64,000 nt of DNA from an uncultured Armatimonadetes bacterium (GTDB taxonomy: Bacteria; Armatimonadota; Armatimonadia; Armatimonadales; Capsulimonadaceae): assembly GCA_963699265.1 (NCBI GenBank), contig OY969427.1, forward strand, positions 3,784,006 to 3,848,005, given 5' to 3'. Positions 4,845 through 46,532 of this stretch are shown here, in pieces. The notes below the pieces were generated by a model, which saw only the letters and a program-made list of their open reading frames with translations, searched no databases and had not been told where the DNA came from. The stretch's first letter is position 1. Each line of letters starts with the position of its first letter. A program made the translations under genes and the position numbers.

Positions 4845-6089
4845 ATGTCGAAAAAGGCAGTCGTCATCGACAGAGTACCGGTATACCGCAGTCTTCAACG
4901 CGAACTAAAGAAGCGCATTCACGGCGGTGAATGGGCCAAGGGCGGGTTGATTCCTAGCCGCCGCGCACTTGCGGACGAATTTGCTGTCTCTGTTCCCACT
5001 GTGCAAAAAGCTATCTCAGATATGGTGTCCGAAGGGCTCCTGCGTGTCAATGCTAAGCGTGGCACTTATGTTTTCGGTGATCCGACTCCCGAACCATCAG
5101 AGGTCTTCGAGTTCGCTCCTATAAGCAAGTCGCCAACACCAGTCGCCGTTGCTCAAGGGCCTGTTGCACTTGTTGGCGACATCCGGCCCAATGAAGGTTT
5201 TGGGTTCGCGCACGGTTGGTCGTTCGTGACGGTCAACGAGGCAGAGCTGGCTCTGTCGCAGATGGGGATCGCATCGCGTTTTTTCAATCGTTTCGCGGCC
5301 GATCCAACTTTAGGAAGCGCCGGTGCGCACATAGAGAGCCGGCAAAACACTAAGACTGATGCGGAGTTGATAAAGGCGATCGCGGAGTGCCGCCCGGCTG
5401 CAGTCGTGCTGCATGAATCCGTTCTTCACCCAGGTCAGCGAAGTTTGATCGACGAGGCAATCGACGCGGGGCTGTTCACAGTAGCCATAGGCTCGCGTAG
5501 CTTTGGTCCGAAGTGCGTGAGCGTCTCATACGACCTAGAAAATGCGGGCTTTCAAGCTGGGAGCCATTTAATTGAAACGGGATGCCGCCGGATTTTGTTT
5601 TTTTCCGCAGGGCAAACGGATTGGGTTCAATCGCGGTTAGCGGGCGTTCGAAGTGCAATTTTTACCACTCGGCCAGGGTCTGTAGAGCTAGTCGAGGCAA
5701 TTGGCGACCACGCCCTTGAGGAGGTTATCCGGACGTCCCGAGATTCGCATCCCCATGTGGCCGTGTCGTACGATTTTGCTAAGAAAATCTTGAGATCGGC
5801 ACCAGATGTGGACGGCGTTGTTGCAGTCAACGACGACGCTGCTTTCGGCTTTGTTCAAGCAGCTTCGGAGATTGGTTTGCGCATGGGAATTGATTATTCG
5901 ATTATCGGATTCGACGACAGTGCCGAGTCGCATGCGTTGGGATTATCGACACTTCACCCGCCTTGTGTAGGGATGGGCCGAGAAGCCGCCTACGTAGTCG
6001 CGAAAAGATTGCAAGGCCAAGAAGATTTCGGCGCGATTGTTCTGAGGTCGCGTCTCGTTGTGCGGGCGTCATCCGCCCACAGGAACTAA
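4845..6089 (+). CDS. AraR-like transcriptional regulator (GntR-type winged HTH fused to a LacI/GalR-type periplasmic-binding-fold sugar sensor)
   Basis: The N-terminus (PSRRALADEFAVSVPTVQKAISDMVSEGLLRVNAKRGTYV) is GntR-like. The C-terminus (DGVVAVNDDAAFGFVQAASEIGLRMGIDYSIIGFDD) is LacI-family sensor-like. A paralog lies at 26100..27353. Confidence 0.85.
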   Translation: MSKKAVVIDRVPVYRSLQRELKKRIHGGEWAKGGLIPSRRALADEFAVSVPTVQKAISDMVSEGLLRVNAKRGTYVFGDPTPEPSEVFEFAPISKSPTPVAVAQGPVALVGDIRPNEGFGFAHGWSFVTVNEAELALSQMGIASRFFNRFAADPTLGSAGAHIESRQNTKTDAELIKAIAECRPAAVVLHESVLHPGQRSLIDEAIDAGLFTVAIGSRSFGPKCVSVSYDLENAGFQAGSHLIETGCRRILFFSAGQTDWVQSRLAGVRSAIFTTRPGSVELVEAIGDHALEEVIRTSRDSHPHVAVSYDFAKKILRSAPDVDGVVAVNDDAAFGFVQAASEIGLRMGIDYSIIGFDDSAESHALGLSTLHPPCVGMGREAAYVVAKRLQGQEDFGAIVLRSRLVVRASSAHRN

Positions 6090-6128
6090 TATGCTGTTGT
6101 ACACAGAAGTCATAAGGAGACTATTGAT

Positions 6129-6929
6129 TTGAAACTCATTCGCACGCGCTCCCAAGGGTTCACCCTCATAGAGCTGCTCGTCGTCATAGCAATTATCGCC
6201 ATTCTCGCCGCGATACTTTTCCCTGTGTTTGCAAAGGCGCGTGAAAAGGCGCGTCAAACGACCTGCTCGTCCAATGAGAGGCAGCTTGGCCTGGCCATAC
6301 TGCAATACGAGCAGGACAACAACGAGAAGCTTCCGACGATCCTGTATGCCGCTGGCAACTACTACGGCGATGGATGGGGTGGGGCTGTCTATCCCTACGT
6401 TAAGGCGTTGGCAGTCTATGACTGCCCTGACGATACGCTCAGCCCTGGCCCGAACGTGGCTTACGCCTTTAATGCTGCACTTTGGAACACCACCTTAGCG
6501 CTTGATGTAGCGCCAGCCTCGACAGTGCTTCTCTTCGAGGCACCAGGGACGGCCTGCAACGTGACCACGAGCGACATTGCCGGATCCGGCGGCTGCGCGG
6601 GTTCAGGCATCTTTGGTTACGATACTGGAAACTGGAACGGGCACCAATATATCACAGGCGAGCAGGGTACTGGAACTGCAGTCGCAGCCGATCCCGGCAA
6701 CGCCCGACATAGCCAGGATAGCAACGACAGCTTGAACTATCTTGCAGCAGACGGCCATGTCAAGTTTCTTCCGATTGGCGACATCGCGCCGGGCACGACC
6801 ACCGATCCTACCGCGTACGGCAACGATACGGTTTCGAGCAATTCGCCGTATGTGAGAGTATCAAATAGCACAGAAGACCCGTCAAGCAAGCTTGTGGCTC
6901 CGCATGTGCTGACGTTCAATCCCAATTAG
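6129..6929 (+). CDS. prepilin-type N-terminal cleavage/methylation domain protein, DUF1559-like (pseudopilin-like), type A
   Basis: Class III signal ([37 protein letters not shown]) and C-terminal [12 protein letters not shown]. The track start at 6129 is a TTG. It lies 40 nt downstream of the regulator. Confidence 0.85.
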
Positions 6930-7099
6930 CCCGGTTCCGAGTCTGCGGTCGCCGCTAGCCAGAAAGCGCATGCAATTCTAGCGGCCACCGCAATGGATCC
7001 AATGAATAAAACAGCAACGTCACGCTTGAATTGAGGTAGAGTCTTAATGAATACCACGCAGCCAATTAGACAAGCTGCAGGCGGTCAACGGAGAACGAA

Positions 7100-7927
7100 A
7101 TGTCAACAAGCACAAAGCGATCAGCTGGCTTCACCCTCATAGAGCTGCTCGTCGTCATAGCCATCATAGCCATTCTCGCCGCGATACTTTTCCCCGTGTT
7201 TGCAAAGGCACGGGAAAAGGCGCGTCAAACGACCTGCTCGTCCAACCTGAGGCAACTTGGCCTCGCGATGATTCAATATGAGCAGGACAATAACGAGAAG
7301 CTTCCGCCAATCCTGTATGCCGCAGGCAATTATTACGGCGACGGTTGGGCGGGAATGATTTATCCGTACGTCAAGGCAACAGCAGTTTATGACTGTCCCG
7401 ACGATACTGTTGCACCCGTGGCCAATGTGCCGAACATGTCCTATTCCTTCAACGCAGCTCTCTACAACACGACACTGGCGCTCAATGTAGCGCCAGCGTT
7501 GACCGTGATGCTGTTCGAGCGGCCAGGCAACAACTGCGACCCGTCGTGCAGCACGAACAGCTTTACGTGTGACCAGAACGGTAGCCGCGGTTGCTCTACG
7601 TCAGGCATTTTCGGCTATGACACGGGCAACTCTAACGGCCACGCCTATATTGCGGGCGAGCAGGGAACGGGAACTGCGATCGCGGCTGATCCGGGCAACG
7701 CGCGTCACAGCCAAGACGCAAACGATAGCTTGAACTATCTCGGTGCCGACGGCCATGTCAAGTTCCTGCCGATTGGCGACATCGCGCCCGGCACTACAAC
7801 GAATCCGTTCACCTACGGCAACGACACGGTTTCGAGCAACTCTCCCTACGTCAGGGTGACCAGTAGCACAGAGGACCCGTCAAGTAAGCTTGTAGCCCCG
7901 CACGTGCTTACGTTCAATCCTAACTAA
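7100..7927 (+). CDS. prepilin-type N-terminal cleavage/methylation domain protein, DUF1559-like, type A (tandem paralog)
   Basis: Same motifs as 6129..6929. The first ~150 nt after the signal region and the last ~200 nt are nearly identical to the neighbouring gene. Confidence 0.85.
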
Positions 7928-7986
7928 ATTGGCTTGTTCGAGCACGACGCCTCAACATGCTCGTACAACTTGATCGTATTGACACT

Positions 7987-8020
7987 TTGGCAGCGGATCG
8001 TCCCGCTGCCAATATTATTT
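7987..8020 (+). terminator. intrinsic terminator after the tandem pilin-like pair
   Basis: 10-bp stem TTGGCAGCGG (7987-7996) / CCGCTGCCAA (8003-8012) with a 6-nt loop, followed by TATTATTTT. Confidence 0.65.
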
Positions 8021-8081
8021 TGAATAAACTTCGCTCAACAATTGCCAGCAAATCAATAAGCTTGGAATAGAAATCAACACA

Positions 8082-11000
8082 ATGAACTTTCGACAGAGAT
8101 TTTGTAGCATTCTCTTCGCAGCCATCTGCGCCTTGGCACTTTCACCGACTAGTGTGGCGCACGCCGGCGGCGTTCATTCCATATCCATAACCTCGCTTCC
8201 CATGGCCCGGTCGCCGATCACAATAGATGGAAACCTTTCCGATTGGCCGGACGTGCGGCCTGTGGAATATGTTCCGATTGCGCCTGGTTTAGCGAAGTCT
8301 GGCTCTCCTGCGCTCGATGCGTTGCGGAGGCATCCCGATTTTGCTGACATACAGGCATGCTATAGCGGGAAGGCTCTCTTTATCGGGATCGTCTGGACTG
8401 GCCTTTCTAAGAATGAAGCTGGCCAGTTTATGCAGCTGCATATTGTTTCGGATCGAACAGTTACCATCCGAATTCCGGAGTCCGGCGTCGCCGGATCGGA
8501 ACCGGTTGAGGAGATGGCCAGCGGGGGAGACGTTTGGCACAATATCTCCGCCAATGGGGGAGCGGTATCGAAGACGGCGTTCGATCCTGACGGTACGGTG
8601 ACCCAGGAAATTCGAATTCCCTGGGCGTATCTGACGTCCTCAGGCGTGCCATCCTCAATGCTGACGATGGCATTCGATTTGGAATGGCCGAATCTGACCG
8701 AGCCGTTCATTGGCCGCCTTCCACAAGAAGTGCTGAATCCTAACACCCACCTAACCGCGTGCTTTTTGACTTCACCCGGCAAGATTCTTGGTGGCGATGT
8801 GTATCTGGGCGATCCGGCAGACTGGGGTGTTCTGCGCTTTGTTCAATCGGCTGAAGCCAACGATACGAAATACTCCGTGATGGCTACAGGCGCGACGGAG
8901 ACGACGGTCCCGAAACTGACTGCTCCCATCGACATCAATGGTCGACTATCAGGCTGGCAAGCGGGACAGTTCCAGTCGATTGTCTTTGCGCCAGGCCTCC
9001 TGGGCGACCGCTACAGTGCGAAGATCGCTACGGCTTTCGACGACGAGTTTTTCTATATCGTGGCGCATGTTCATTCACCAGGCGGTCCATACAATACGGA
9101 AGCCGAAGCACGCCAGTCGGGCTTCGCTGGCGGCGATGCTTTGCAGATTCGCCTCAACGATGGAAAAAACACGGTCAACTTGTGCGCCTGGTACGACTCA
9201 GTTCGCCATTCGCCAGCGTTGACCGCAGATGGCGGAGATCTGAAAAACCCGTACCTACGTCAGCAAGGAGCCAAAGAGGCGTTCCTAGCGGATGCCGACT
9301 GCCAAGGCTATACTCAGGAGATTGCAATTCCGTGGAGCGTCCTGCCTGCTGGTGCTGCGCCGAATGTTGGCGACATGTGGAAAGGGACGTTCCAAGTTTG
9401 GTGGTCGGGCCTTGAGCCGCAGTTTACGGCAATCGCCAATCCAACGCTTGCGTCCGGCGGAGGCATCGCCTATACATATAAGCTGCCCAAAGAGGCAAAT
9501 GTGTCGCTCGGCATCTACGACACACAGGGGCATCTCGTCCAGACTCTTGTCAAAGATGCTCACCGCCGCACTGGCGCTAACACGGACTTCTGGAACGGTG
9601 AAGATCAATTTGGCAAGGTCGTGTCGCCGGGACGATACGAAGTCCGAGGGCTTTACCATCCACCTATCTCCGTTCAGCACGCGATCAGCATCGGAAATCC
9701 GGGCACTCCGCCATGGCCGACAGCAGACGGCAAAGGAGATTGGCTCAGCGACGAAGCTGCGCCTCAGGCGGCAGTGACTGACGGAACCAATGTCTATCTG
9801 GCCGCGCCCGGTTGCGAGAAAGGCAGCTCGGTCATCGCGGTAGATGCCAGCGGCAAGCGGATTTGGGGCTTTAGCATCGGCGAAAATCCACGTTGCGTTT
9901 CGCTTACGCTGCGTGGAAACTACCTTTACGTGCTCTATTCCGGCCCGCTTACGGTGGGCAAAGACGTGATTGGTCGTGGCGACCTGATTTGCATCGATAA
10001 GAACACCGGTACGACCGCACTGTTCAGCACCGAAAAGCCGACACTCAGGGTCGCGACCTATCCCTATATTGATCGGGTCGCTGGCCTGTGGGACTTGCGT
10101 GTCCATAAGTCGTTCAACCCGCTCAACTACGAGGGCCAACCGCGCTATTTCGCCAACGATGTTGGAGAGGTGTCGGACGCAGTTGGTCTAGCTGCAACTC
10201 CCACTCGCCTTTACGTATCGATGATCGAGCAAAATCAGATATTGGTCCTGGATGCGAACGACCGGCCAACAGTTGGACACAATCCAAATTACGCACCCCG
10301 TTGGGCTTCATACGCTGCCGAATGGCAAGATTTTGGCGGTCAGCGATGGTCAAATTGTGACCATCGATCCCTCCAGCAAGACGTCAACTGTCACGATCAA
10401 CCACGACCTTGCCGCGCCGCATGACGTTACCACAGATGCTGCAGGAAATATCTATGTCAGCGATTGGGCAGACTCGTTCCAGGTCAAGGTGTTTTCGCCC
10501 GATGGCAGTCGGCTAATTCGCGCAATCGGTGTCAAGGGCGGGCGTCCGTGGATCGGTGCTTGGAATCCGAATGGGATGCTGTTGCCGCGAGGAATCGCCG
10601 TCACCAACAATGGCAAGCTCTGGGTGGCCGAGGACGATGCTTCGCCAAACAGGATCAGCGTTTGGGATGCGGCCACCGGAGCGTTTATCCGCGACTACAT
10701 CGGGCCATCGCCATACGGCGGCGGTGCCAACTTCTGGGTAGATCCGAGCGATACGTCCACAGTGCTCGCGGAAGGCACCCTGTTCCATGTCGACTACGCA
10801 AAAAAGACCTGGACGCCTGTTTCGACTCCATTTCGCCGCATGAGCATGACAGAACCTTTTACGCCTAATGGCATGTTTGGCGGTCAGCCTGGCTGCAGAA
10901 CTATCGTTCACGACGGCAAGCAGTTCGTTTATTGGACGTATGGTACCTACGGCATGGTCGTAATGCGCCGCGATGGTGACCGTCTGACTCCCGTTGCCGC

Positions 11001-13238
11001 TGCTGGATGTCTGGGGCGCTGGACAGCCAACGAAGCCACCAGCCTGCACGTCTGGGACAGTGATATTGGCACGCACAATATCAAGAATTACTATCCCAGC
11101 TTCTTCGCGGGCCACAGTGGCGACGACTTCATATGGGTCAACAAGAATGGCGATGGGGAAGTCCAAGCAGACGAAGTTCAATGGATTCACACCATTTTTC
11201 GCTTTGACAAATGGGCGCCGGGGCTCGAGCCGGAATGGACAAGTGGCTGGGGATTTGGATTCGGTCCGGATGGCGCGCTGTATATGCCGGGCTTTTGTGT
11301 TGACCGCAATATATTGACAAGAGTCGAGTTGCAATCGTGGCTGCCGAACGGCAATCCGAATTATGATGCTTCCTCAGCCAAGGAGATCATCCTGGAACCG
11401 AGCGAGCTTGGGATTCAGGGTGTCTTTGTGACCGATAACAATCGAATTTTGCTGACGAGGCCATATGAAGGCCCGAAGCCGGTTCGCACTGAAGACTGCT
11501 ACGACCACGACGGCAACCATCTATGGACCATCGCGGCACCGCAAGGTGCTCAGCAGGCTGACGATATTCTGGCTGACAATGTGATCGCCGACATTCATGA
11601 GCCGGGCAACGAGCATCTGTTGGCGACTTGGCTTTGGCACGCAAACTTCAAGCCATATGTGTTTACCGAGGATGGTCTCTATGTCAGCAGTCTCCTGGAC
11701 GATACGCGCTTGGGGCCAACCGCAACCTGGGACGAGTCCTATAAGGACTACTTCCAGGCGCCCGACGGCAGTGCGTACATTATGGACGGCGTTAACGACG
11801 CTTACCATATCGACAAGATCATTGGTTTAGACCAAATTCACCGCTTCAGCGGAGCCGCTCACGGTAACGTCTGCCGATCTAAAGATATCGCAAGCTGCGA
11901 TGACCGCAAGCGCCAACGTGCCGCCACCATTGCCCCAACCGATCATCCATATGAAGTGGCTCGACAAGGCACCCGTAATTGACGGGGACTTGTCTGACTG
12001 GAACATGGATAGTGGCGTCGCGGTACATGGCACGAAGGGGCGTTCGGCTAAGATCGCGGTTGCACATGATGCGCAAAACCTGTATCTTGCGTTCGACGTA
12101 ACCGGCGCGAAAATGGTCAACAAGGGCGGAAACTGGCAGACGCTGTTCATTACCGGCGACTGTGACGACTTCATGTTCCACGCCAGTGCATATGCCGCTC
12201 ACTTTTCGCCAGCTGAAGGGGACGAGCGGTTGCTCCTCAGCGTGTTCCAGGGGCAACCAATCGCAGTGCTGTACAAGCCAGTGGTGTCCGGGACGACCGC
12301 GCCGACGAGGCTAATGGGCGCGACCATCGATCAGATTGTCAAGCTTCCGTCCGCCAAAATCGGCATTCAACGATCTGCTGACGGGTATACGCTCGAAGCA
12401 TCGGTTCCGCTGTCGGACCTTGGTATCGACCCTGCTCAAGGGACTATCGAACGGGGCGATGTTGGCGTCGTTTATGCTGACGAGACTGGGGCAAACCGAT
12501 CTTTGCGCCTCTATTACTACAACCACGACACGTCGATGACTGCGGACCTAACCACCGAAGCCACTCTCCAACCGGGAAACTGGGGCGAAATCGAAATGCC
12601 ACTCGGCCAAAACCCGATCAAGAACGGCGATTTTGAGGAGCCCTTGGCGACGAAAGTGGATCAAGGTTGGTTTGTCTCTGATTCCAAAAACGGCGGGAGT
12701 GCAGACATTAACGGCGACGTGTCTTACAGCGGCAACCACTCGCTTCGCTTGCGGGTAACTACGCCGGTTGACTACACGCCAGACTCCTTCAAGCTACCGG
12801 ACTACGACGCGTTTGTTCGGTCTGGGAACGGTGGCAAAGGCGGCGGGTTCGTGGAAGTCCGTCAGAACTTCCCTGTCGTCGGCGGTATGAAGTACAACCT
12901 GCGGTTCCACTTACATACGGAAGGCTTCCCTGGCGGAGAAAACAAGGATCCCGGTCCGAACCGTGGATATGTGGCCCTCGAAACGTGGATGGAGTGGATT
13001 GGTGCCGACGGCCGTGCCAACGGTCGGGAGTGGATCACGAACTGGCAGGATTCCGAATATCGCTTGGAATACAGTGTTCGACGGTCGCTTCAATGTCGGC
13101 GGCGTCACTGTGCCGTACACGGCTCCCCAAGGTGCCACGTCGGCTACGCTGGAGATTAGCCTCGTCGATAACCATGCCAATTCGACGCCTACAGCATACG
13201 TCGATGATGTGGAGTTTTCGCTCGCGCCGCAACAGTAA
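8082..13238 (+). pseudogene. giant secreted CBM9-like/FlgD-Ig/NHL-propeller/CBM4_9 protein, copy 1, interrupted by three +1 frameshifts (or assembly indels)
   Basis: Track ORFs 8082..10424, 10252..11982, 11900..13159 and 12963..13238 tile, in order, the full length of the paralog at 35821..40987. The junctions fall at about 10257, 11860 and 13055. It has a signal peptide (ALALSPTSVAHAGG). After removing 3 nt it would encode about 1,717 aa. Confidence 0.75.
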
Positions 13239-19210: not shown

Positions 19211-19247
19211 TTGACAACGCCAGCCGATTGTTGTATTATCTGTGCAA
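19211..19247 (+). promoter_or_regulatory. near-consensus sigma70 promoter plus TGTGCAA box
   Basis: TTGACA (19211-19216), 17-nt spacer, TATTAT (19234-19239), then TGTGCAA at 19241-19247. Confidence 0.6.
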
Positions 19248-19319
19248 CAGTGTATCACAGAGAAGCCATTTTTCGATGACTGTGTGAAAAATGTAAAGGT
19301 GGCCGAAGGGGTAAGAAAT

Positions 19320-33759: not shown

Positions 33760-35483
33760 ACGTTTTTGCCGTCGGTCACCGCTGCTTGCGGCGCGGCCTC
33801 GTCGCTAAGCCAGTCGCCGGTGCCGTCGGCGTTGGGCCACGGCGGCGTGCCGGGGTTGTCGATGGAGATCACGGGCTTGGTCTCAATTGGGGGATGGTAC
33901 AAACCTTTCAGAACATAGTTGCCGGGGCTGACGGGATTGCCGAACTGATCGATACCGTCCCAGTAATCGGTATTTCGTCCGGCTCGTCTATGGGAGTCTT
34001 TGACCAACGTGCGAATGAGATGGCCCTGCGTGTCGAACACGGCCACCGTAACGTTTGCCTCCTTCGGCAGATTATATGGGCACGCGATGCCCCCGCCAAC
34101 GGCAAGTGTTGGCTCCGCAAACGCGGTGAACTCACGATCGAGTCCGGCCCACCAAACCTGAAAAGTTGCTTTCCATGTATCGCCAGCGTTCGGCGCTCAG
34201 CCCGGCGGCAGCTCTTTCCATGGGATCGCGATGACCTGCGTATAGCCGGTGCCATCTCGATCAGTTGCGAATGCCTCCTGCGCGCCTTGCGCGAGTAGCG
34301 ACGGACTCTTGGCGTCTTGGCCGTCCTCGGTCAATGCGGCCTTTTTGTTGACCGAGTCGTACCACGCGCAAAGGTTGACGGTCTGCTTGCCATCGTTGAA
34401 CCGGATCTGCAGGCAGTCGCCCCCCGCGTACCCAGCTTTGGTCGCTTCAGCCATCTTGTTCAAAGGCCCGCCCAATGCCTTGGCGTGCATCCCAACATAG
34501 AGGACGTTGGAATCGTATGCCGTCCCAATTTTCGCGCTGTAACGATCGCCTAAAAAACCAGGTGCAAAGGCAGCGGTCTGAAACTGCGATGACTCCCATC
34601 CGGCAAGGCTACCCGTAACCGGCAGCGGCGCACTTACTTTCGAGACGTAAGTCTCTGTCGCGCCAGTCCTGAGAGCGCTGAATCGAGTCGCGTTTGTGTG
34701 CGGACCATCCGAAAAAATGAGCGAGCCCCAGTCGGCCGGGTTGCCGAGCGATGGCTCGCGCGTGAACAGCGCTTTCGGTGACGTGAGGAAACAGTCCGTC
34801 AAAAGGGTGTTGTCGTGCCGCACCTGCGTGGGAAGCTGCCGCATGAACGATGCTGTCAGACTGGGCCACTGCATGTCGATTGCGAGCGCAAGACTTGTGG
34901 TAGGCTGAGAGGATGCCGTCAAGACTGTCCAAGGGATTCGGATCTCCTGGCTGGTGGTGCCGTCGGGATGGTGAACGCTGGCCGACTTAGCACCATACGT
35001 GCCGATGCTGCGCCACGGGGAGTCGGCGGACATTTTAGCCAGAACATTTGGCACCCATCCAGAGAACGATGGCGCGATCTGAATATGCACCATCCGATCA
35101 GTCTGGATAGAAAGCTGGAGCTCTCCCGACTGCGCTATACGCGGCAGTCCCGTCCAGACGATGCCAAAATAGAGCGCCCTTTGATCGTAAGCGGCTTGGA
35201 CAGTGGCGCTGTATGAGTGGCTGCGCAACTGCGCCATGGCGGGCGTCTGATCCTTCGCGAGGCCAGGATCTAGCGGTGTAAAGACGACAGGGTGCAAATC
35301 CGGCCAGTCGGAAAGGTGGCCGTCAATAACGAGCGGAGTTCGGACCTCTGGGATTGATGTCAGCGCGATGCCATGAACGCCGCCAGCATGAGCAGTTTCA
35401 CACAGCGCAAATGCAAAAACGCATGATAGAGCAGCGCAAACCATGAGACGGCATCGGTCAAGAGTTTGAGTCATTAGATTCAC
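33746..35483 (-). pseudogene. giant CBM9-like/FlgD-Ig protein, copy 3: N-terminal ~580 codons only, with an in-frame TGA at 34199..34197
   Basis: ORFs 34197..35483 and 33573..34046 are in one frame. My translation across the gap reads LPPG-stop-APNAGDTWKATFQVWWAGL, colinear with copies 1 and 2. Homology ends after YLAAPG at about 33746. GTG start at 35483. Confidence 0.75.
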
Positions 35484-35603: not shown

Positions 35604-35656
35604 TTGACATTTTAATTGAACAATCGTATCATGTCTGTAGTCAACATACTTGCACA
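35604..35656 (+). promoter_or_regulatory. near-consensus sigma70 promoter plus TTGCACA box upstream of giant copy 2
   Basis: TTGACA (35604-35609), 17-nt spacer, TATCAT (35627-35632), TTGCACA at 35650-35656. About 190 nt of leader precedes the ATG at 35821. Confidence 0.6.
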
Positions 35657-35820
35657 CAGTGTATCATTTTGTGCCAATCAACGCAATACGCCAGTATTTG
35701 AATCTCACAGCCACGGGCGATAAGGAATGAAAGAGCATTTCACAGGTTGCTCGTTGTAGTAGCAACTATCGCTGCACTAGAATCCATCTAGTACAAACCT
35801 TTCACCGAAAAAGACAACTC

Positions 35821-38800: not shown

Positions 38801-40987
38801 TTGGCATTTTCGACAGCAATCTCGGCACCCATTACATTCAAAACTACTTCCCACCGTTCTTCAAAGGACACTCCAGCCAAAACTTCGTTTGGGTCAACAA
38901 AAACGGCGACGGTGAAGTTCAAGAAGACGAAATGGAGTGGGCTCCAACCGCGGCCTTAGGCCCTGGAAACTCGTATATTCCAGGAACAGTTCCCGGAATG
39001 ACAGACCTACTGGGCTTACGGAGTTGGGGCTGATGGTTCGGTGTATGGGTGCGGGCATGTCGGAGGCAAAACGATAATCGGCAAGTTTCCGATTCAGAGC
39101 TGGTTGCCAAATGGTGTTCCAGTCTATAGTGTCGCGTCTCTAAAACCCGCAGTTGTACGACCGGATTCCGATGGAGGCGAGCAAGCCGTTTACGTTGACA
39201 ACTTCGACCATGTCTATCTTTGCCGAGGCTATGGCTACGAAGGCAACGACAAGGACGGCATCGATGTCTATGACCAGAACAGCAATTGGCTCTGGGGCAT
39301 TGCCGAAACGAAGCAGCAGCAGCCCGACGATATTTTGGCGAACTCCATAATTGGAGAGTTTACAGAGCCTCACGGAGAAGACATTATCGGCAGTTGGCTC
39401 TGGCATGGAAACTTCAAGCCCTACCTCTTTACAAGCGACGGCCTGTATGTCTCCAGCCTGCTTGACGATACGCAGCTAGGCCCGACTGCGACATGGGACG
39501 AATCCTACAAGCGCTATTTCCAAGGCCCAGACGGAACGGCGTACATAGTCAACGGCGGCAAGGACACGTTCCATATCGACAAGATTGTTGGACTTGATCA
39601 ACTGCACCGCTTCACCGGCACGATCACTGTTACGGAAGCAGCATTGCGATCTTCTCAGGCAAGGGCTCAGATTCTGGCCTCAACACCGGCACCACTTCCG
39701 CAGCCGGTAATCCATGTGACCTATGTTAAGAGCGCGCCGAAAATCGACGGCGACCTTTCCGATTGGGACATGCGCGGCGGTGTCGCACTCATCGGCTCTC
39801 GCAACCGGTCGGCACATGTTGCCCTGACTCGCGATGCTGATACGCTATACCTAGCATACGATGTCCACGGCGCAAAGTTTGTCAACAAGGGGACAGACTG
39901 GCGGACGATGTTCATTTCGGGAGACTGCGTCAACCTGATGCTGCATGTGGGCGAGTTCAAGCCTCACTTCGGGCCTGCCGAAGGCGACGAGCGCCTGTTG
40001 TTCAGCATCTATCAGGGCCAGCCTGTTGCCGTTCTGTATCGGCCCGTGGTGCCCGGAACAGCAAACCCAGTTCACCTCATGGCAACCACGATCGATCAGA
40101 TCGTTCGTCTGCCAAGCGCGAAGATTGCCTACCATCGCACTGCTGGCGGTTACACGCTGGAGGCATCGGTGCCGCTCAAGGACATTGGGCTTGGCGGGGG
40201 CGCGGTTGAAACGCTCAAGGGCGATGTCGGTGTGATCTATGCAGACGAGACGGGTTCAGACCGGTCGCTGCGCTTGTACTACTATAACAAACACACGGCG
40301 ATGACCGCCGACCTGACTACCGAGGCGACCCTTCAGCCAGGCGAGTGGGGCGATATCGAGCTTCCGCTGGGAGTCAACCTGCTCAAAAACGGCGACTTTG
40401 AAGACCCGCTGGCGACATCGCCCGATGACGGGTGGGCGATACAGTCGAGCAGGGCTGGCGCGACGGCCGAGATTTCAAGCGACTTTGCGTACACGGGATC
40501 GCATTCGCTTGAGCTCGAGGCGACAGTGCCGAACAGCTATGCGGATGCCGATATCAATCGGCCTGCGTCGGAAAAGGACGAGTTCTTTCGCTCCGTGAAC
40601 GGCGGGAAGGGTGGTGCACGGGTCGAGGTGAGGCAGCGGGTGGTCGTGTCGCCGGGCAAGAGGTATGACCTGCGGCTTCATTACCACGTCGTAGATTATC
40701 CCAACGCAAATGACCATCCCGGAGCGCAGCGTGGATACTGCGCTTTCCAGACATACATCGAGTGGGAAGGCCCCGTGCGCGGGATCCTGGTGAACAATCT
40801 GCTAGGCCCAGTTGGCGGCTGGAACTTGCTGCACGATGATCGCTGGAACAACTACGATGTCAAGGGGCCGTATCTAGCACCGACAGGTGTCGATGCGATG
40901 CTTGTCCATTTAACGCTAGAAGACAATGCAACGCTTGTCACTCCAAAAGTCTATATCGACGATGCGGAGTTGGTGGAAGCGGCCTAA
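35821..40987 (+). pseudogene. giant secreted CBM9-like/FlgD-Ig/NHL-propeller/CBM4_9 protein, copy 2, with one +1 frameshift near 39001 (or assembly indel)
   Basis: ORFs 35821..39033 and 39041..40987. The second frame is open from 39002 and reads QTYWAYGVGADGSVYGCGH, colinear with copy 1 (EWTSGWGFGFGPDGALY). It would encode about 1,721 aa if 1 nt is removed. Confidence 0.75.
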
Positions 40988-41017
40988 TCTCCACCGATTT
41001 TGCGCGGCCAACACCAT

Positions 41018-43168
41018 ATGAAGACCATTCATGTCATCTTGAACGCTCACCTCGATCCGATCTGGCTTTGGCCTTGGCAGGCGGGTTTGGACGAGGCGAT
41101 CGCAACGTGCCGCAGCGCGTGCGATCGCCTTGACCAAAATCCCGACATTATCTTTTCTCGCGGAGAAGCATGGGTCTACGACCAGTTCGAGCGAGTCGAT
41201 CCAAAGCTTTTTGACCGGATTCGGCAGCATATTGAAGCGAAACGTTGGGAAATCGTTGGCGGCTGGTGGATACAGCCCGATTGCAACCTTCCTAGCGAAT
41301 GGGCGATGCGCTGGCAGATCAGGCTGGGTAAGGAGTACTTCGAGAAGAAGTTTGGTGTCTTTCCACGATATGGCTATAACGTCGATTCGTTTGGCCATGC
41401 CGCCGGATTGCCTAAGCTCATGACGGACGCTGGCCAGGACAGCTACATCATGATGCGCCCCGGCCCGTCGGAGATGGCTCTGCCCGCGTCAATCTTTCGA
41501 TGGCGCGGATATTCTGATGGTCCCGAAGTTCTTACCGCCCGCATTCACGGATATCAGACAAACACGGAGGTCTCGCTAGATTACGTGCACCGCTGCGTCT
41601 CCGGCGTTCCTGCCGGTATTGACCATGCGCTATGCTTTGTCGGGATTGGCGACCATGGCGGCGGCCCGACCCAGCAGCAGATCGAGTGGTGCCGACAGCA
41701 TGCTGGTGTTGTCCCAGGCTGGCAGATGCAGTTTTCCTCGCCGGGCCGATTTTTCGATGCCGTCCGAGCGGATATTGACAAGCTGCCTGTCGTCACCGGA
41801 GAGCTGCAGCCCCATGCCGTCGGCTGCTACTCGGTGATTCGGTCTGTAAAGACAGCCGTGCGGCGCGCTGAGCATCTCCTTGCGCAAGCCGAAGTCGTGG
41901 CACGAGCCGAAGACGCCCCAGCGATTGCTGAAGCATGGAAGCGGGTCTGCTTCAACCACTTCCATGACACGTTCGGCGGCACGAGTATCCCCAGTGCGTA
42001 TCCGATTGTCCTTGATCAGATTGGCGCGGCCTCTATGGTCGCAGACGAAATACTGCAGCATGGGCTGCGCCGCAGGATGAATGAGCTTCCTGACAACGAA
42101 CTGCAGCGGGTAGTGCTCTATAATGCTTCGTCAGCTCCATACGCTGGCTACGTTGAATTTGAGCCATGGGTGGATTGGTGGCAGCCCTGGCTACCGGATT
42201 GCGTCTTGCTCGATTCGAGCGGCAACCGGGTTCCATTCCAAGTAATCGAATCCGAAGCATTTGCCCGGTTCGGAACAAACGGCGGCTTCACACGCCTGCT
42301 TTTCCATAGCTCGCTCGGGCCTAATGAACTGAACGCGCTTCGCATTCAGCGCAACTGCGGAGATGTGACTTTTCAGCCCAGTGTATTCGCGGCAGAGGGA
42401 AAAATCAGCAACGACGCTGGCATTGCGGTCTCCCGGGATGGCCCACAGGCCATGGATGGCGCAGCTTGGCCGACCTTCGAACTCCATCTCAATGACGACC
42501 GCAGCGATACTTGGAGTCACGGCGTCATCGGCTTTTCGGACGAAATCGTCAGCAAGGCAAGTTGGACAGAACCAGTCATCGTTGACAGCGGACCTATAAT
42601 GGCGTCGCTCGTGGCTGACGGCACGATTGGGGACAGCGAGCTGCGCTCGGAGTGGCGAGTTTATGCGGGCGAGCCATATGCCGAATGGATTTTGAACGTG
42701 AATTTTCGCGAGAAGCATAAAATGCTTAAGCTCGCGATCAGGTCGAACGGGGGATTCGAAGAAGATCGCATCGATGGCGTCATGGGAGGTGCACTAGTGA
42801 GACCGAACAGCGGCGCGGAGCGCCCATTACGAGACTGGACGCTCATCAGGCAGCTAAGCGGGCCAAGTCTTGGGATTGTCGCGCCGGACGTTTACGGCAT
42901 CGACGGTTCGCCCGACCGAGTCCGCCTAACCCTCCTTCGAAGTCCCGCAATGGCGCATCATGAGCCTGTTGACATCGCGTCGGCAATACGAGCGGTCATC
43001 GCCGACCGAGGCACGCACACGTTTCGGTTCCGGTATTATTGTGGGAATGAGATCACAGAGCAGACTTTGGAGCCATCCGCGTTCTCCATGCAACGCCCGC
43101 CGGTCATTGCTGATTTGACGAGAGGGATGCCGCTGGAGTTTCGGTCCAACGTCAATCGGTCAGTCTAG
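41018..43168 (+). CDS. GH38 alpha-mannosidase-like, copy 2 (intact)
   Basis: Motifs HLDPIWLWPW and GIGDHGGGPT. I prefer the ATG at 41018 (MKTIHVILNAH) within track ORF 41000..43168. Confidence 0.85.
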   Translation: MKTIHVILNAHLDPIWLWPWQAGLDEAIATCRSACDRLDQNPDIIFSRGEAWVYDQFERVDPKLFDRIRQHIEAKRWEIVGGWWIQPDCNLPSEWAMRWQIRLGKEYFEKKFGVFPRYGYNVDSFGHAAGLPKLMTDAGQDSYIMMRPGPSEMALPASIFRWRGYSDGPEVLTARIHGYQTNTEVSLDYVHRCVSGVPAGIDHALCFVGIGDHGGGPTQQQIEWCRQHAGVVPGWQMQFSSPGRFFDAVRADIDKLPVVTGELQPHAVGCYSVIRSVKTAVRRAEHLLAQAEVVARAEDAPAIAEAWKRVCFNHFHDTFGGTSIPSAYPIVLDQIGAASMVADEILQHGLRRRMNELPDNELQRVVLYNASSAPYAGYVEFEPWVDWWQPWLPDCVLLDSSGNRVPFQVIESEAFARFGTNGGFTRLLFHSSLGPNELNALRIQRNCGDVTFQPSVFAAEGKISNDAGIAVSRDGPQAMDGAAWPTFELHLNDDRSDTWSHGVIGFSDEIVSKASWTEPVIVDSGPIMASLVADGTIGDSELRSEWRVYAGEPYAEWILNVNFREKHKMLKLAIRSNGGFEEDRIDGVMGGALVRPNSGAERPLRDWTLIRQLSGPSLGIVAPDVYGIDGSPDRVRLTLLRSPAMAHHEPVDIASAIRAVIADRGTHTFRFRYYCGNEITEQTLEPSAFSMQRPPVIADLTRGMPLEFRSNVNRSV

Positions 43169-43219
43169 TACCAGTGATAAACATGCCGCGGGGACTTTGA
43201 ACGTGTACAGGAACGAAAT

Positions 43220-43252
43220 GGCCGCGATCCTCTCTAATTGAGGATCGCGGCC
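43220..43252. terminator. bidirectional hairpin terminator (GGCCGCGA family)
   Basis: 13-bp perfect stem GGCCGCGATCCTC / GAGGATCGCGGCC with a 7-nt loop. It lies between the convergent GH38 and pilin-like genes. Confidence 0.65.
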
Positions 43253-43282
43253 GTATTGTCTTTAGCCCGTAAGCTGTCTCGA

Positions 43283-44131
43283 TTAGGTGGGACTGAACGT
43301 CAACGTCGCCGAGCTTTGGACCGCGCAAGGCGCGGATCCTACGTTCGCAGGCGGGGTTGCGCTGTCCATACATGCCGTTCCGGAGGCAAATGTCTGTCCT
43401 CCGCCGCCGTTGCCGTAGATCTGCTCGGCGCCGGGAGTGGCCGCACTGAACCCTGGCGAAATCTTCACGGGCAAAAGATACTTCACGTGGCCATCGCAGG
43501 CTAGATAGTTGGCGCCGCCGTTGTGCACAGTTCCCGGCTTGATCAGTTTGAGTGTCTCAGCCGCGGGGTTGCCAGTCGCGTACAATCCCTGGTCATTGCC
43601 TGGTTGGCCACCGTAGAATCTTTGATCCATCGTGGAAAGAGGCGAATTGTCGGCACCCCAAGATGCCGCAGGTAAGGCCTGGTTGTAGGCTCCCTGAATC
43701 TCGCACAATAGGACTGTCGATGCCGGCGCGTTCAGCTTCGCAATCGCCAGACCGCTTCCAATGGCGTTCATCGTATTCGTCGTGTTATTCTGCGCATACG
43801 CAAGGTTCCAATTCATTGTATACGAAATCTCCGCATTGGTCCCCGAAGGAGTGAGCGGGTCGTCCGGACACTCAAAAACACCAACAGCCTTAACGTATGG
43901 GTATATTTGAGTCGCCCACCCGACGCTGGCACCGTCGTTTATGCTGTAGTGTTCGTCGTTGTCCTGGTTATATTGAACAAAGGCTAGGCCGAGTTGTTTC
44001 AGGTTGCTGGCGCAGGATGTCTGCCTTGCCTTTTCTCTCGCCGACGCGAACACCGGGAACAAAATCGCCGCAAGAATGGCGATGATGGCTATAACCACAA
44101 GCAGCTCAATCAGCGTAAATCCTCGTTTCAT
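43283..44131 (-). CDS. prepilin-type N-terminal cleavage/methylation domain protein, DUF1559-like, type B
   Basis: [40 protein letters not shown], and an H-X9-DG-like [17 protein letters not shown]. The ATG at 44131 is preceded by GGAGA. Confidence 0.85.
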
Positions 44132-44197
44132 CGTAATCTCCAAGTCAAGAGTAAATTAGTACGATCGGGCTGCAAGTCTTAGCTCGATTCCATCATT

Positions 44198-44261
44198 ATC
44201 CTAGCAGAATATCGTGGTCTTGTCAAGCATAATGGTACAGTATGTAAAAATCTATTGCACA
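44198..44261 (-). promoter_or_regulatory. sigma70 promoter plus conserved upstream two-box element
   Basis: Read on the reverse strand: TGTGCAA (44261-44255), 16 nt, TGTACC (44239-44234), then TTGACA (44226-44221), 17-nt spacer, TAGGAT (44203-44198). Confidence 0.6.
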
Positions 44262-44358: not shown

Positions 44359-44399
44359 AAATGGCCGCGATTCTCGCCGATTGAGAATCGCGGCCATTT
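44359..44399 (-). terminator. hairpin terminator (GGCCGCGA family)
   Basis: 17-bp stem AAATGGCCGCGATTCTC / GAGAATCGCGGCCATTT. A/T runs on both flanks allow termination in either direction. Confidence 0.7.
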
Positions 44400-44421
44400 C
44401 TTGCCTAGATTAGAATCTGCG

Positions 44422-45294
44422 CTAGATCGGGCTGAAAGTCATCGTCGCCGAGTTTGGAACCGCACACGGTGCCGTTCCAACGTTTGCAGGCGGCGTTGCA
44501 CTATCCATGCACGCTGTTCCGGAGGCGAATGTCTGACCGCCTCCGCCATTGCCGTAGATCTGCTCTGAGCTCGGAAGTGCCGCAGTAAACCCTGGCGAAA
44601 TCTTTACAGGCAGTAGATATTTCACATGTCCGTCGCAGGCAAGGTAGTTGGCCCCGCCGTTGTGAATACCCGTCTTCAGTTTGATCAGTTGAAGCGTCTC
44701 CGCCGCCGGGTTACCAGTTGCGTACAATCCCTGCTGTCCGCCGGGCTGACCGCCCCAGAATCTTTGTTCCATCGTAGATAGCGGCGACAGGTCGCTGCCC
44801 CAGCTCGTCGCAGGCAGAGGCTGACCGTTTGCTCCCTGGATCTCGCACAGCAGAACTGTCGATGCCGGCGCGTTCAACTTCGCAATTGCCATCCCGGGAT
44901 TAATCGCGGGAGGAAAGTTGGCAGAGTTGGTTGTGTTGACCATCGGAACCTCAAGATCGAAGTTCATCGTGTAGGAGATCTCCACGTTGGTACCGCTGTT
45001 GCCACCATTCCCGCTAAGCGGATCGTCTGGGCAAACATAGACGCCGGCCGCCTTCACGTAAGGATAAATTGCCGTCGCCCAGCCCTCGCTGTTGTTGTCT
45101 GGTATGCCGTAAAACTCGTCGTTGTCCTGGTTGTATTGAACAAAAGCCAGTCCAAGCTGTTTTAAGTTGCTTGCACACGACGTTTGCCGGGCCTTTTCAC
45201 GCGCCGTTGCGAACACCGGGAACAGAATCGCTGCCAGAATCGCGATAATGGCTATTACCACGAGCAGCTCAATGAGCGTAAATCCTTTTTTCAT
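44422..45294 (-). CDS. prepilin-type N-terminal cleavage/methylation domain protein, DUF1559-like, type B
   Basis: [40 protein letters not shown] and [23 protein letters not shown] lies upstream of the ATG. Confidence 0.85.
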
Positions 45295-45370
45295 CGTTTC
45301 CTCGCTTGTCGAAAGTTGAAATATTACGGGCGGTTCGCAACTCGACCTTCAGAGCTCGAAACCTGTACCC

Positions 45371-45434
45371 ATACTATCAGACAATTAGCCGCTTGTCAAG
45401 CATATTGTCACAGTATGTTAATGTTTGTTGCACA
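45371..45434 (-). promoter_or_regulatory. sigma70 promoter plus conserved upstream two-box element
   Basis: Read on the reverse strand: TGTGCAA (45434-45428), 16 nt, TGTGAC (45412-45407), TTGACA (45399-45394), 17-nt spacer, TAGTAT (45376-45371). Confidence 0.6.
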
Positions 45435-45536
45435 GACACAGGAGTAACCCACGTGTTGAGCTTGCCGCTCTCTGTGAAACGGTCAGTGCAACATCCTTTG
45501 CTGCTTCCTCCGGCGCTGGCCCGACAAAAAATTAAT

Positions 45537-45569
45537 GGCCGCGACTCATTCCCGTGAAGAGTCGCGGCC
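45537..45569 (-). terminator. hairpin terminator (GGCCGCGA family)
   Basis: 11-bp stem GGCCGCGACTC / GAGTCGCGGCC with an 11-nt loop. Confidence 0.6.
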
Positions 45570-45597
45570 ACGTTGTCTTTTAGGTCAGAACTACCGT

Positions 45598-46464
45598 TTA
45601 GACGGGGCTGAATGTCAAGGTCGCTGATCCTTGCTGTGCGCAGGAAGCTGTTGAGGAAGTTCCCGGGTTCGTCGCCGAGTCCATGCAGGAAGTCCCTGAC
45701 GCGAACGCTTGATTGTTGTTAGGCACAAACTGTTCCGCACCCGGCGTGGCCGCGTCGAAACCGGTTGATATCTTGCCGGCCAGCAGATACTTCACATGTC
45801 CGTCGCATGCAAGATAGTTGGCGCCGCCATTGTGAAATGCCTGAGGAATAATCAAGTCGATCGGCTGGCCGGTAGGTTCGCCGGTGGCATACTTTCCATT
45901 TCGACCGCCTGGATAACCGAAGCCGCCACTAGACCAAAATGTTCGGTCCATTGTGGACAGCGATGACTGGTCGGCTCCCCAGGTAGCAGCGGGAAGCGTC
46001 AAGTTGATGTAAGTCTGCATTTCACACAGGAGAACAGTCGATGCGGGCGCGTTCAACTTGCCGACCGATATTCCAGAGTTTCCTGGAATCGAAGGTATTG
46101 TCGCGGTGCTTCCAGAGATTGTCTCTGGCGTAGCAAGGTTGAAGTTCATGGAGTAGGAGCACGCTGCGAAACCGGCCTGCGGAACTGATGGGTCGTCAGG
46201 ACACTGATATACAGCCGTCGCCTTAACATAGGGATACACCGGAGTTGCCCAACCCTGGCTGTTGATGTCCATGGCCGGATAGCACTCGTCGTAATCCTGA
46301 TTGTATTGAATGATCGCGAGGCCGAGCTGCTTTTCGTTGCTCGCGCAAGACGTCTGCCGCGCCTTCTCGCGCGCAGTCGCGAACACTGGAAAAAGAATGG
46401 CTGCTAGTATGGCTATGATCGCTATCACTACGAGCAGCTCAATGAGTGTAAAACCTCGTTTCAT
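45598..46464 (-). CDS. prepilin-type N-terminal cleavage/methylation domain protein, DUF1559-like, type B
   Basis: [40 protein letters not shown] and [18 protein letters not shown] prefer the ATG at 46464 (GAGGTG upstream) within track ORF 45598..46470. Confidence 0.85.
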
Positions 46465-46532
46465 CTTCACCTCTCTGGTCTAATTTGAAATAAATGCGGT
46501 CGGGTGGTCCGTCGCAGACCCGATCTTCAGAC

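Follow-up and report, generated by a model that had tools for sequence, protein, structure and literature searches.

This 64-kb stretch of DNA (the window, by which we mean the whole of the sequence analysed) is chromosomal and belongs to a soil-type member of the Armatimonadota. It carries the str operon (S12, S7, EF-G, EF-Tu, L3, L4), purF, grpE and two tRNA genes, its G+C content is about 56%, and the close homologues of its proteins all come from Armatimonadota, chiefly from Capsulimonadaceae and their relatives. As judged from an open reading frame (ORF) map and from Pfam and NCBIfam scans over positions 4845-46470, this region is a polysaccharide-utilisation locus (PUL), rearranged and in part decayed, or in part mis-sequenced. 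Embedded in it are five genes for proteins of the DUF1559 family with prepilin-type signals, here called pilin-like genes 1 to 5, together with copies of a gene for a giant secreted protein. The original prediction for this DNA had proposed a regulon-level coupling of DUF1559 proteins to polysaccharide degradation, and this idea now has comparative support from gene order, from a shared promoter box and from a published precedent (PMC13274419).

Pilin-like proteins and giant secreted proteins

The five predicted prepilin-type genes are all intact, and each codes for a class III signal with G-1, F+1 and E+5. They are as follows.

6129-6929, + strand: pilin-like gene 1, 266 aa; class III signal with leader ending in SQG; H-X13-DG variant; N_methyl 38 bits, SBP_bac_10 42.8 bits, TIGR02532 33.7 bits
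7100-7927, + strand: pilin-like gene 2, 275 aa; N_methyl, DUF1559 and TIGR02532 matches; modelled with AlphaFold2 (AF2)
43283-44143, - strand: pilin-like gene 3, 286 aa; exact H-X9-DG; TIGR04294 17.9 bits
44422-45294, - strand: pilin-like gene 4, 290 aa; exact H-X9-DG(H); TIGR04294 18.0 bits
45598-46470, - strand: pilin-like gene 5, 290 aa; TIGR04294 20.7 bits, over the cut-off

Pilins 1 and 2 are 83% identical, and pilin 4 is 82% identical to pilin 3. The first pair does lie between a regulator gene and a giant-protein gene, with regulator 1 placed 40 bp before pilin 1 and giant1 155 bp past pilin 2, and a tblastn search of the window found no pilin remnants beyond the five genes. Across the five proteins the scores were 34-38 bits for PF07963 (N_methyl; cut-off 21.2), 31-37 bits for TIGR02532 (cut-off 16.3) and 42.8-51.9 bits for PF07596 (cut-off 23.3), the last with the first 63-134 of 268 profile positions aligned. 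The profile for the H-X9-DG motif, TIGR04294, has a cut-off of 19 bits; pilins 1 and 2, which carry an H-X13-DGH variant, gave no match to this hidden Markov model. The family itself is very large, with at least 7,989 matches at E <= 1e-8 among 8,000 scored candidates.

The predicted fold of the DUF1559 protein is a pilin fold, a long helix followed by a four-stranded sheet. In the AF2 model of pilin 2 (predicted template-modelling score, pTM, 0.80) the helix spans residues 13-63 and the strands residues 112-118, 135-145, 210-215 and 220-224. An alignment of 86 sequences showed as invariant the N-terminal F11-F34 stretch, C46, C99, D101, E140, H203 and D217-G218-H219, and the invariant residues of the head frame loops that are variable and of low confidence. 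A Foldseek search of the PDB with the model returned weak matches to type IV pilins only (E = 0.4-1.1), with no periplasmic-binding-protein (PBP) fold and no lectin-like match, and a profile search of PDB sequences matched pilins alone, by way of the N-terminal helix. We consequently rejected the reading of DUF1559 as a solute-binding protein, and neither the pilin fold nor the pilin-only structure matches support the name SBP_bac_10, which Pfam uses and PMC2754498 repeats. Nor are these proteins GspG: TIGR01710 scored 36.7-44.8 bits over the N-terminal ~60 residues only, against an equivalog cut-off of 88.85, and the Pfam and NCBIfam scans of window ORFs detected no gsp genes near the pilins. 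The best partial NCBIfam matches were to GspG and Myxococcus PilA, again over the N-terminal ~60 residues. No carbohydrate-binding module (CBM) or lectin signature was detected in the heads by Pfam and NCBIfam, which gave DUF1559 and N_methyl only. Family members are named "DUF1559 family PulG-like putative transporter" in RefSeq; our literature search found no paper supporting this name, and the query "H-X9-DG" gave nothing useful. According to PMC10632474, DUF1559 has no established function.

The giant-protein genes had been described as three copies of about 1,720 aa. What the window holds is two full-length paralogues, both frame-disrupted, and one truncated fragment:

8082-13238, + strand: giant1, roughly 1,700 aa on read-through; signal peptide, putative CBM9-like domains, FlgD-Ig, NHL propeller; three frameshifts
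33573-35483, - strand: fragment of giant copy 3, N-terminal third only, about 575-640 aa; internal stop, 3' truncation
35821-40987, + strand: giant2, 1,070 + 648 aa; one frameshift near 38995

Full-length homologues measure 1,700-1,730 aa. When one of them (P0003) was used in tblastn, giant1 was recovered as four frame-shifted pieces, with frameshifts at ~10256, ~11900 and ~13060, and copy 3 was matched by P0003 residues 1-573 in a single frame at 35474-33738. Since nucleotide identity between the copies is just ~66%, they are old paralogues, and duplication in the assembly was rejected as their source. Copy 3 abuts and overlaps a convergent, 3'-truncated DUF6785 gene, from which we infer a deletion.

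The Pfam matches of the giant proteins are FlgD_ig, NHL, SGL and PQQ_2. Their description as multi-CBM proteins is weakly supported overall: CBM9_1 is present in some homologues (about a quarter carry a precomputed PF06452 match), but the giants of the window match only FlgD_ig and NHL, without a PF06452 match at E <= 0.01, and the match between the giant-family profile and the solved CBM9 structure 1i82 is marginal (E = 0.06). The conserved C-terminal VDDVEF strand may correspond to the final strand of a jelly roll of the CBM type. For giant2 residues 1-1070, the AF2 model (mean per-residue confidence, pLDDT, 82.6) consists of all-beta domains and a propeller, and with it Foldseek returned generic NHL/YVTN propeller matches only. 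A catalytic assignment for the giant protein was rejected, since propeller, Ig and CBM-like modules were all that emerged from the searches with Pfam, NCBIfam, PDB profiles and Foldseek. Across the 79 homologue loci described below (L001-L079) the family falls into two size classes, ~1,700 aa with an extra N-terminal domain of ~270 aa, and ~1,310 aa, beginning at about residue 275 of the longer form; the shorter class includes all Acidobacteriaceae and many Verrucomicrobiales members. Two or three giants stand in tandem or divergent copies in L016, L034, L070 and L076.

A shared promoter box and the order of genes in relatives

The promoters of the locus had been said to share one box, and the evidence for it is now stronger than originally claimed. 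The box was defined empirically, with a short form, TGTGCAA/TTGCACA, and a full 16-mer form, TTGCACACnGTGTWWC; a fixed-spacing bipartite pattern, TGTRCAA-N13-TGTRYCA, gave no matches and was dropped. TGTGCAA occurs at 14 sites in the window, of which 9 are intergenic, although intergenic DNA makes up 14% of the window (binomial p ~2e-5), and all 9 lie in promoters of the locus: two before regulator 1, one in the interval between the six-hairpin and BD-FAE genes, one before regulator 2, two before the beta-helix gene, one in the interval between giant2 and the giant fragment, and one each before pilins 3 and 4. The boxes are arranged as follows.

4768-4832, + strand: regulator 1 boxes; TGTGCAA at 4768 before the -35, TGTGCAAtattaGTGCACA at 4814-4832 right past the -10
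19241-19257, + strand: six-hairpin box TGTGCAACAGTGTATCA, directly past the -10, in an interval common with the divergent BD-FAE gene
26067-26073, + strand: regulator 2 box TGTGCAA, 27 nt before the start codon
27572-27628, + strand: beta-helix boxes; TTGCACA at 27572 and TTGCACACTGAGTATA at 27613, either side of a TTGACT-17-TATCAT promoter
35650-35665, + strand: giant2 box TTGCACACAGTGTATC, a perfect 16-nt form, past a TTGACA-17-TATCAT promoter, between the giant fragment and giant2
44255-44261, - strand: pilin 3 box TGTGCAA followed by ACATACTGTACCA, just before the -35 hexamer
45428-45434, - strand: pilin 4 box, in the same arrangement as that of pilin 3
46591, - strand: pilin 5 variant box TTGTACAA...ACATAGTGTACCA, in the same arrangement as that of pilin 3

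In three cases (regulator 1, giant2 and the six-hairpin gene) the box stands just past the -10 of a TTGACA-17-TAnnAT promoter, which is the position expected of a repressor operator. From sequence and position we infer an operator-like element, a putative target of the regulators of the locus, which combine a GntR helix-turn-helix (HTH) domain with a PBP-like sensor. Pilins 3-5 appear monocistronic in a promoter and terminator scan, each with its own terminator and its own sigma-70-like promoter (44226-44198, 45399-45371 and 46561-46533, respectively). Near-identical G+C-rich hairpins follow these three genes at approximately 43218-43254, 44385-44420 and 45250-45285, of the form GGCCGCGA(T/C)TCTC...GAGA(A/G)TCGCGGCC and then a T-run; we read them as terminators duplicated with the genes.

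The full 16-mer (up to 2 mismatches) occurs at 18 sites in the 2.3 Mb scanned, 11 of them in two contigs of a sister genome (L080 and L081). There, 10 of the 11 sites lie 44-46 nt before pilin start codons, past a strong extended -10 promoter, and the remaining one precedes a giant gene; in the window, sites of the 16-mer precede giant2 and the beta-helix gene. One box element therefore stands before pilins in the sister genome and, in the window, before giant, glycoside hydrolase (GH) and regulator genes. Within the 110 nt that precede each L080/L081 pilin there is a near-identical module, running from TTGACA through 17 nt, an extended -10 (TGCTGTAAAAT), ~17 nt, the box and AAGGAG to ATG. The -10-to-box spacer varies and the box is kept, which suggests that whole promoter-operator-gene cassettes were duplicated and then remained under selection.

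Gene order was compared in 79 loci with giant homologues (L001-L079), from six phyla, obtained by an alignment-based scan of genome contigs; a scan of the contigs with the single giant2 sequence gave no matches. Of 58 testable giant homologues, 10 have a pilin directly upstream and on the same strand, whereas pilins occupy 14 of the 450 remaining flank positions (odds ratio 6.5 by Fisher's test, p = 9.7e-5); by the looser criterion of a distance up to 1.5 kb there are 16 cases. By phylum, this order was found in 5/9 Lentisphaerota, 2/7 Planctomycetota and 2/22 Armatimonadota in addition to the window, and was absent from the Verrucomicrobiota (0/16) and Acidobacteriota (0/17) sampled. The heads of giant-adjacent pilins fail to cluster across phyla, and a single orthologous pilin-giant pair, co-inherited across phyla, was consequently rejected; the nearest homologues of the window's own pilin-giant pair reside in a different array.

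A LacI/GntR-type regulator with a PBP-like sensor directly precedes 10 of 15 pilin arrays in the Armatimonadota loci, where regulator-like genes make up ~4-7% of genes. In other phyla the same holds for 3/15 arrays, and among DUF1559 genes sampled at random from metagenomes for 3/57. Furthermore, eight pilin contexts were picked by similarity to pilin 2 alone and are thus unbiased as to neighbours; in five of these eight the pilin adjoins a carbohydrate-active enzyme (CAZyme) gene or a giant gene. The random sample, taken across phyla, shows a mixture of neighbours in which the beta-helix, heparinase and LacI families have only a modest share, so that tight coupling is enriched in certain lineages and is not universal. 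The cassettes observed were:

Window: regulator, pilin, pilin, giant
L005 and L010: regulator, pilin, giant
L001: regulator, pilin, CBM9 protein, giant, regulator, pilin, pilin, LamG/CBM9 protein
L080 and L081: regulator, pilin, GH172, then three pilins and a giant
L163: regulator, pilin, GH78, ABC transporter
L164: LacI, pilin, GH29
L167: pilin, GH32, ABC transporter, LacI

In L001 three cassettes are packed into 23 kb, and downstream in each of them lies a large protein bearing CBM9. Most partner proteins (giants, GH172, GH78) carry Sec signal peptides.

Other genes of the locus and its state of preservation

The remaining genes of the locus are listed here with their best family matches.

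4845-6089, + strand: regulator 1, intact; GntR 2.5e-15 and Peripla_BP_3 1.1e-19 (Pfam)
13464-15941, - strand: GH116 glycosidase; DUF608/GH116 1.8e-50, Glyco_hydr_116N 4e-39
15952-18118, - strand: GH38 alpha-mannosidase a, 451 + 273 aa, frameshift near 16770; Glyco_hydro_38N, Alpha-mann_mid and 38C on two ORFs
18241-19182, - strand: BD-FAE carbohydrate esterase, N-terminal signal or anchor; Pfam BD-FAE 5.5e-59
19242-21800, + strand: six-hairpin (alpha/alpha)6 GH-like protein (GDE_C / MGH1-like), no signal peptide; GDE_C 3.8e-6, over the cut-off
21643-24048, + strand: protein without Pfam match, about 730-800 aa; N-terminal RRGQSMGYWLSEPSI common to L080:2375-4615 and L081:887-3136
24021-26030, + strand: SASA-type acetylesterase; SASA 1.5e-18, GH2_N-like sugar-binding domain, signal peptide, possible lipobox
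26100-27353, + strand: regulator 2, in-frame TGA at 26625-26627; GntR on a 175-aa piece, Peripla_BP_3 on a 239-aa piece
27892-30928, + strand: secreted beta-helix protein with C-terminal CBM35/CBM13-like module, frameshift near 28900
31060-32370, + strand: AXE1 acetyl-xylan esterase; Pfam AXE1 2e-35
32425-33759, + strand: DUF6785 multi-pass membrane protein, 3'-truncated; 7.5e-110, profile positions 4-408 of 498
41000-43168, + strand: GH38 alpha-mannosidase b, intact, no signal peptide; Glyco_hydro_38N 8.6e-46 and middle and C-terminal domains

The Pfam matches agree with the enzymes predicted earlier, namely GH116, two GH38, three esterases (BD-FAE, SASA, AXE1) and the six-hairpin GH-like protein. 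A beta-helix/CBM35 protein is likewise present, but its matches (Pect-lyase_RHGA_epim 7e-4, CBM_35 2e-4, CBM13-like 6e-5) are weak and below the gathering score. The further statement that the locus encodes only carbohydrate functions does not hold, because the DUF6785 protein is a multi-pass membrane protein to which no function is assigned; it is the sole candidate permease of the locus, possibly for oligosaccharides. In a genome of the Capsulimonadaceae, a DUF6785 homologue (L062:19891-21717) and a giant gene are ~6 kb apart. Besides this truncated protein, Pfam scans detected no recognisable ABC, MFS or TonB transporter in the 40-kb locus, and no window ORF scanned matched the families of a SusC-like TonB_dep_Rec or of SusD.

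Both of the AraR-like regulators that had been reported show the architecture of a GntR HTH with Peripla_BP_3, the second with a premature stop. Recoding of TGA was rejected as an explanation of this stop, as TGA terminates 3 of 20 confident genes. An orthologue of regulator 1, with 53% identity, precedes a giant gene in L002. GH116, lacking a signal peptide, is probably cytoplasmic. GH38 adjoins a giant homologue in L166 too, and homologues of the six-hairpin protein adjoin giant genes in L033 and L064. The conserved protein of ~750 aa without a Pfam match may represent an unrecognised glycoside hydrolase family; it has no signal peptide, and in the window as well as in L080 and L081 its gene adjoins those for a SASA esterase and a GntR/PBP regulator.

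Disrupted genes in the locus are the giant copies, GH38a and the beta-helix gene (frameshifts), regulator 2 (TGA) and the DUF6785 gene (3'-truncated). This damage, made up of the frameshifts, a pair of in-frame stops and a single deletion junction, is unusually concentrated in the CAZyme locus (8082-13238, 15952-18118, 26625-26627, 27892-30928, 32425-35483, 35821-40987), whereas the flanking EF-G, EF-Tu, PurF and ribosomal protein genes, and all five pilin genes, are intact. The frameshifts are either real decay of the locus or uncorrected indel errors of long reads; nonsense codons, the truncation and three disruptions within one gene suggest that at least some of the decay is real. As read from this assembly, the giant-protein genes appear to be inactivated in this genome while the pilin genes stay intact.

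Elsewhere in the window, a restriction-modification-like cluster (52194-53937) codes for a Vsr mismatch endonuclease, an HNH endonuclease and a C-5 cytosine DNA methylase, and adjoins a helix-turn-helix gene at 51320-51706. A long ORF at 3053-4318 (- strand), an upstream extension of grpE, overlaps tRNA-Leu and tRNA-Gly on the opposite strand (4145-4400, +), so that the true GrpE start is probably further downstream, near 3700-3950.

Proposed role of the pilin-like proteins and comparison with known systems

DUF1559/PulG-like proteins form one of the largest paralogous families in several phyla that do much of the breakdown of complex polysaccharides in soil and water and that, to our knowledge, are without PULs of the SusC/D type. 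The reported numbers are 68 in Planctopirus, where two copies are essential, 74 in Rhodopirellula, 79 of PulG type in Fimbriimonas and 67 in V. alginivorum (PMC10632474, PMC2754498, PMC4072686, PMC13274419), and a link to polysaccharides makes the function of this family testable. The presence of pseudopilin paralogues in polysaccharide clusters is already noted once, in passing, in a 2026 paper (PMC13274419). In the literature searched, we did not find described the Armatimonadota cassette of a regulator followed by DUF1559 genes and a CAZyme or giant gene, nor the cross-phylum recurrence of the pilin with the giant family, nor the operator-like box.

We favour, as moderately probable on the genomic evidence, the reading that DUF1559 proteins are sugar-induced, exchangeable pseudopilin subunits that would work with co-encoded secreted glycan proteins and with machinery encoded elsewhere. 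Under this reading, the GntR-HTH/PBP regulators would bind the box past the -10 of strong sigma-70-type promoters and would be released upon binding of a sugar effector, a step to which their domain architecture and the position of the box point. The pilin-like genes and those for the giant CBM9-like/NHL-propeller proteins, esterases and GHs would then be co-expressed, as the shared cis-elements and the conserved gene order suggest. Prepilin peptidase would cleave and methylate the pilin-like proteins, which would join one shared filament, either of the type II secretion or of the type IV pilus-like kind; the G|FTLIE motif and the near-invariance of the first 45 residues across thousands of paralogues are consistent with such processing. 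In the last and least secure step, the variable head might set the specificity of each paralogue for its co-encoded partner or substrate, and the pseudopilus or fibre would export the cognate secreted enzyme or binding protein, or display it on the cell surface. Export or display is favoured by the typical position of the pilin directly before a secreted enzyme or binding protein, by the precedent of PilY1-like docking, in which a tip protein docks on the pilin through beta-strand addition (PMC13533445), and by a similar suggestion in an independent, proteomic study of alginate use in Verrucomicrobiota, where a pulG-like pseudopilin lies within an alginate-induced lyase cluster and another pseudopilin is over-expressed on alginate (PMC13274419).

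As predicted, no pilus ATPase, platform protein, secretin or prepilin peptidase was detected by Pfam and NCBIfam scans within the 64-kb window. This absence from a single window says little, since these phyla disperse tens of such genes per genome, with 79 PulG genes in Fimbriimonas (PMC4072686) and 67 pseudopilin paralogues in V. alginivorum (PMC13274419).

Several observations weigh against the exchangeable-subunit reading. Pilins 3-5 differ from the other promoters in carrying the box upstream of the -35, and they are monocistronic. The conservation of the box among pilin promoters could in part be inherited through duplication of whole cassettes. Giant-adjacent pilins of separate phyla are not one orthologous clade, and three of the eight contexts chosen blind to neighbours have no carbohydrate link (L162, L168, L169). 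Among the closest relatives a regulator precedes the giant without any pilin (L002, L165), so that the pilin is a dispensable neighbour and not an obligatory partner of the giant. Some downstream partner proteins, among them the GH29 of L164 and a 746-aa unknown, have no signal peptide and fit poorly with a simple cargo model. Finally, several locus genes are frame-disrupted, which may mean either that the system does not work in this genome or that indel errors are present in the assembly.

Among other explanations, the main one, though unlikely, is that the proteins form a sugar-induced, retractile type IV-like fibre for glycan capture or uptake, with lectin-like heads, the enzymes being Sec-secreted independently. 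In its favour, Planctopirus and Gemmata have pili-like fibres to which gold-labelled dextran binds (PMC5394234) and whose components a review describes as still unknown (PMC12673574), a variable head is set on an invariant polymerisation helix, and RefSeq names the family a putative transporter. Moreover, GH38, GH116 and the six-hairpin enzymes lack signal peptides and are probably cytoplasmic, and apart from the truncated DUF6785 protein no recognisable transporter accompanies them, so that an import route is needed. However, the heads carry no CBM or lectin signature and gave no lectin-like match in Foldseek, the L163 and L167 cassettes have their own ABC transporters with binding proteins, and the tight order of pilin and giant would be left unexplained. 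The slot between regulator and GH is one that a binding protein often fills in sugar operons, as would be expected if DUF1559 proteins were solute-binding proteins, membrane-anchored or in a short pseudopilus, that feed oligosaccharides to transporters as in the bindosome of Sulfolobus. We regard this as very improbable, as the AF2 model (pTM 0.80) has one helix and a small four-stranded sheet in place of two PBP lobes, the Foldseek and PDB profile searches matched pilins only, and L163 and L167 encode genuine Peripla_BP binding proteins as well.

There may also be no specific coupling, self-contained DUF1559 cassettes simply piling up by hitch-hiking in rearranged accessory regions such as CAZyme islands. 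This would account for the separate promoters and terminators of pilins 3-5, for the near-identical promoter modules of the L080/L081 pilins, which fit whole-cassette duplication, for a gene order that varies among close relatives, for the housekeeping share (3/8) of the neighbour-blind contexts, for the deletions and pseudogenes of the locus, and for the very mixed neighbours in the random metagenomic sample. Yet several genes that are not paralogous (regulator 1, giant2, the beta-helix gene and the six-hairpin GH) have the same box before them, regulators precede 10/15 Armatimonadota arrays where only ~4-7% of genes are regulator-like, the enrichment of pilins before giants extends over three phyla, and a pseudopilin is induced on alginate (PMC13274419). 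The statistics and the box on non-paralogous genes disfavour pure hitch-hiking, which we consider quite unlikely, although the closest relatives, with a regulator before the giant and no pilin, leave it some room.

To return to the reading of regulated, exchangeable pseudopilin subunits, a wider version is that DUF1559 proteins are the specificity layer of glycan use in Armatimonadota and the Planctomycetes-Verrucomicrobia-Chlamydiae group, in which every paralogue would answer to a sugar-sensing regulator of its own and join a single common type II secretion or type IV pilus-like machine, so as to export, display or pull in the enzyme or polysaccharide that matches it; this we put forward only tentatively. 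If true, cassettes of a regulator, DUF1559 genes and a secreted CAZyme would be the functional equivalent of PULs marked by SusC/D, and both the paralogue expansion and the glycan-binding fibres of Planctomycetes would be accounted for. The cassette of a sugar regulator, pilin-like genes and a GH or giant, together with the box, offers a handle for direct experiments, and the cassette is usable as a practical marker of glycan loci in these lineages.

The pilin-like proteins share with GspG/PulG and type IV pilins the short basic leader, G|FTLIE, E+5, the alpha1 helix of ~50 residues and a small beta-sheet head. They differ in a head about twice as large that bears the DUF1559 and H-X9-DG signatures, and in genes that lie outside gsp/pil operons, number tens of paralogues per genome and in many cases have a promoter of their own that is predicted to be sugar-regulated. 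The arrangement of one to three pilin genes right before a very large secreted beta-propeller protein recalls PilY1/PilC modules, and docking by beta-strand addition (PMC13533445) would be a ready mechanism for displaying the giant. Unlike those modules, however, the giants have no Neisseria_PilC or vWA match in Pfam, PDB profile or Foldseek searches, and the window has no set of four minor pilins.

A precedent by description is the cluster of V. alginivorum (Verruconatronum alginivorum), where a pseudopilin of an expanded family (67 copies) lies in a polysaccharide cluster and was transferred along with it. Few proteins of that bacterium are over-expressed on the polysaccharide, one of them being a pseudopilin, and its enzymes may, as the study proposes, be exported by type II secretion (PMC13274419). 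Phylum, substrate and enzymes (polysaccharide lyase families) are different there, and neither the order of regulator and pilin nor a box is described. Glycan loci with linked pilus genes, whose expression responds to xylan, occur in cellulolytic Firmicutes (Caldicellulosiruptor bescii; Ruminococcus; bioRxiv 10.1101/614800), but there the pilus genes form complete operons with one major pilin and are not dozens of dispersed single pilins paired with a regulator or enzyme.

With SusC/SusD PULs the locus shares the co-location of substrate-regulated genes for sensing, surface binding and degradation, and a recurrent, lineage-typical, non-catalytic marker gene. In contrast to them, no TonB-dependent transporter or SusD was detected among the window ORFs scanned, the marker is a pilin-like protein that would rely on machinery elsewhere, and the association with DUF1559 is frequent (5/8 contexts) and not universal. 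In the archaeal bindosome, sugar-binding proteins of Sulfolobus carry class III signal peptides and are assembled by a type IV-like machinery. The pilin-type signal on proteins of sugar acquisition is common to both systems, but the Sulfolobus proteins are true ABC-type binding proteins, whereas the DUF1559 model has a pilin fold. The proteins of this locus are members of the type IV pilin-like superfamily with a DUF1559 domain, distinct from GspG, from solute-binding proteins and from the components of a SusC/D PUL, and their giant neighbours are distinct from PilY1.

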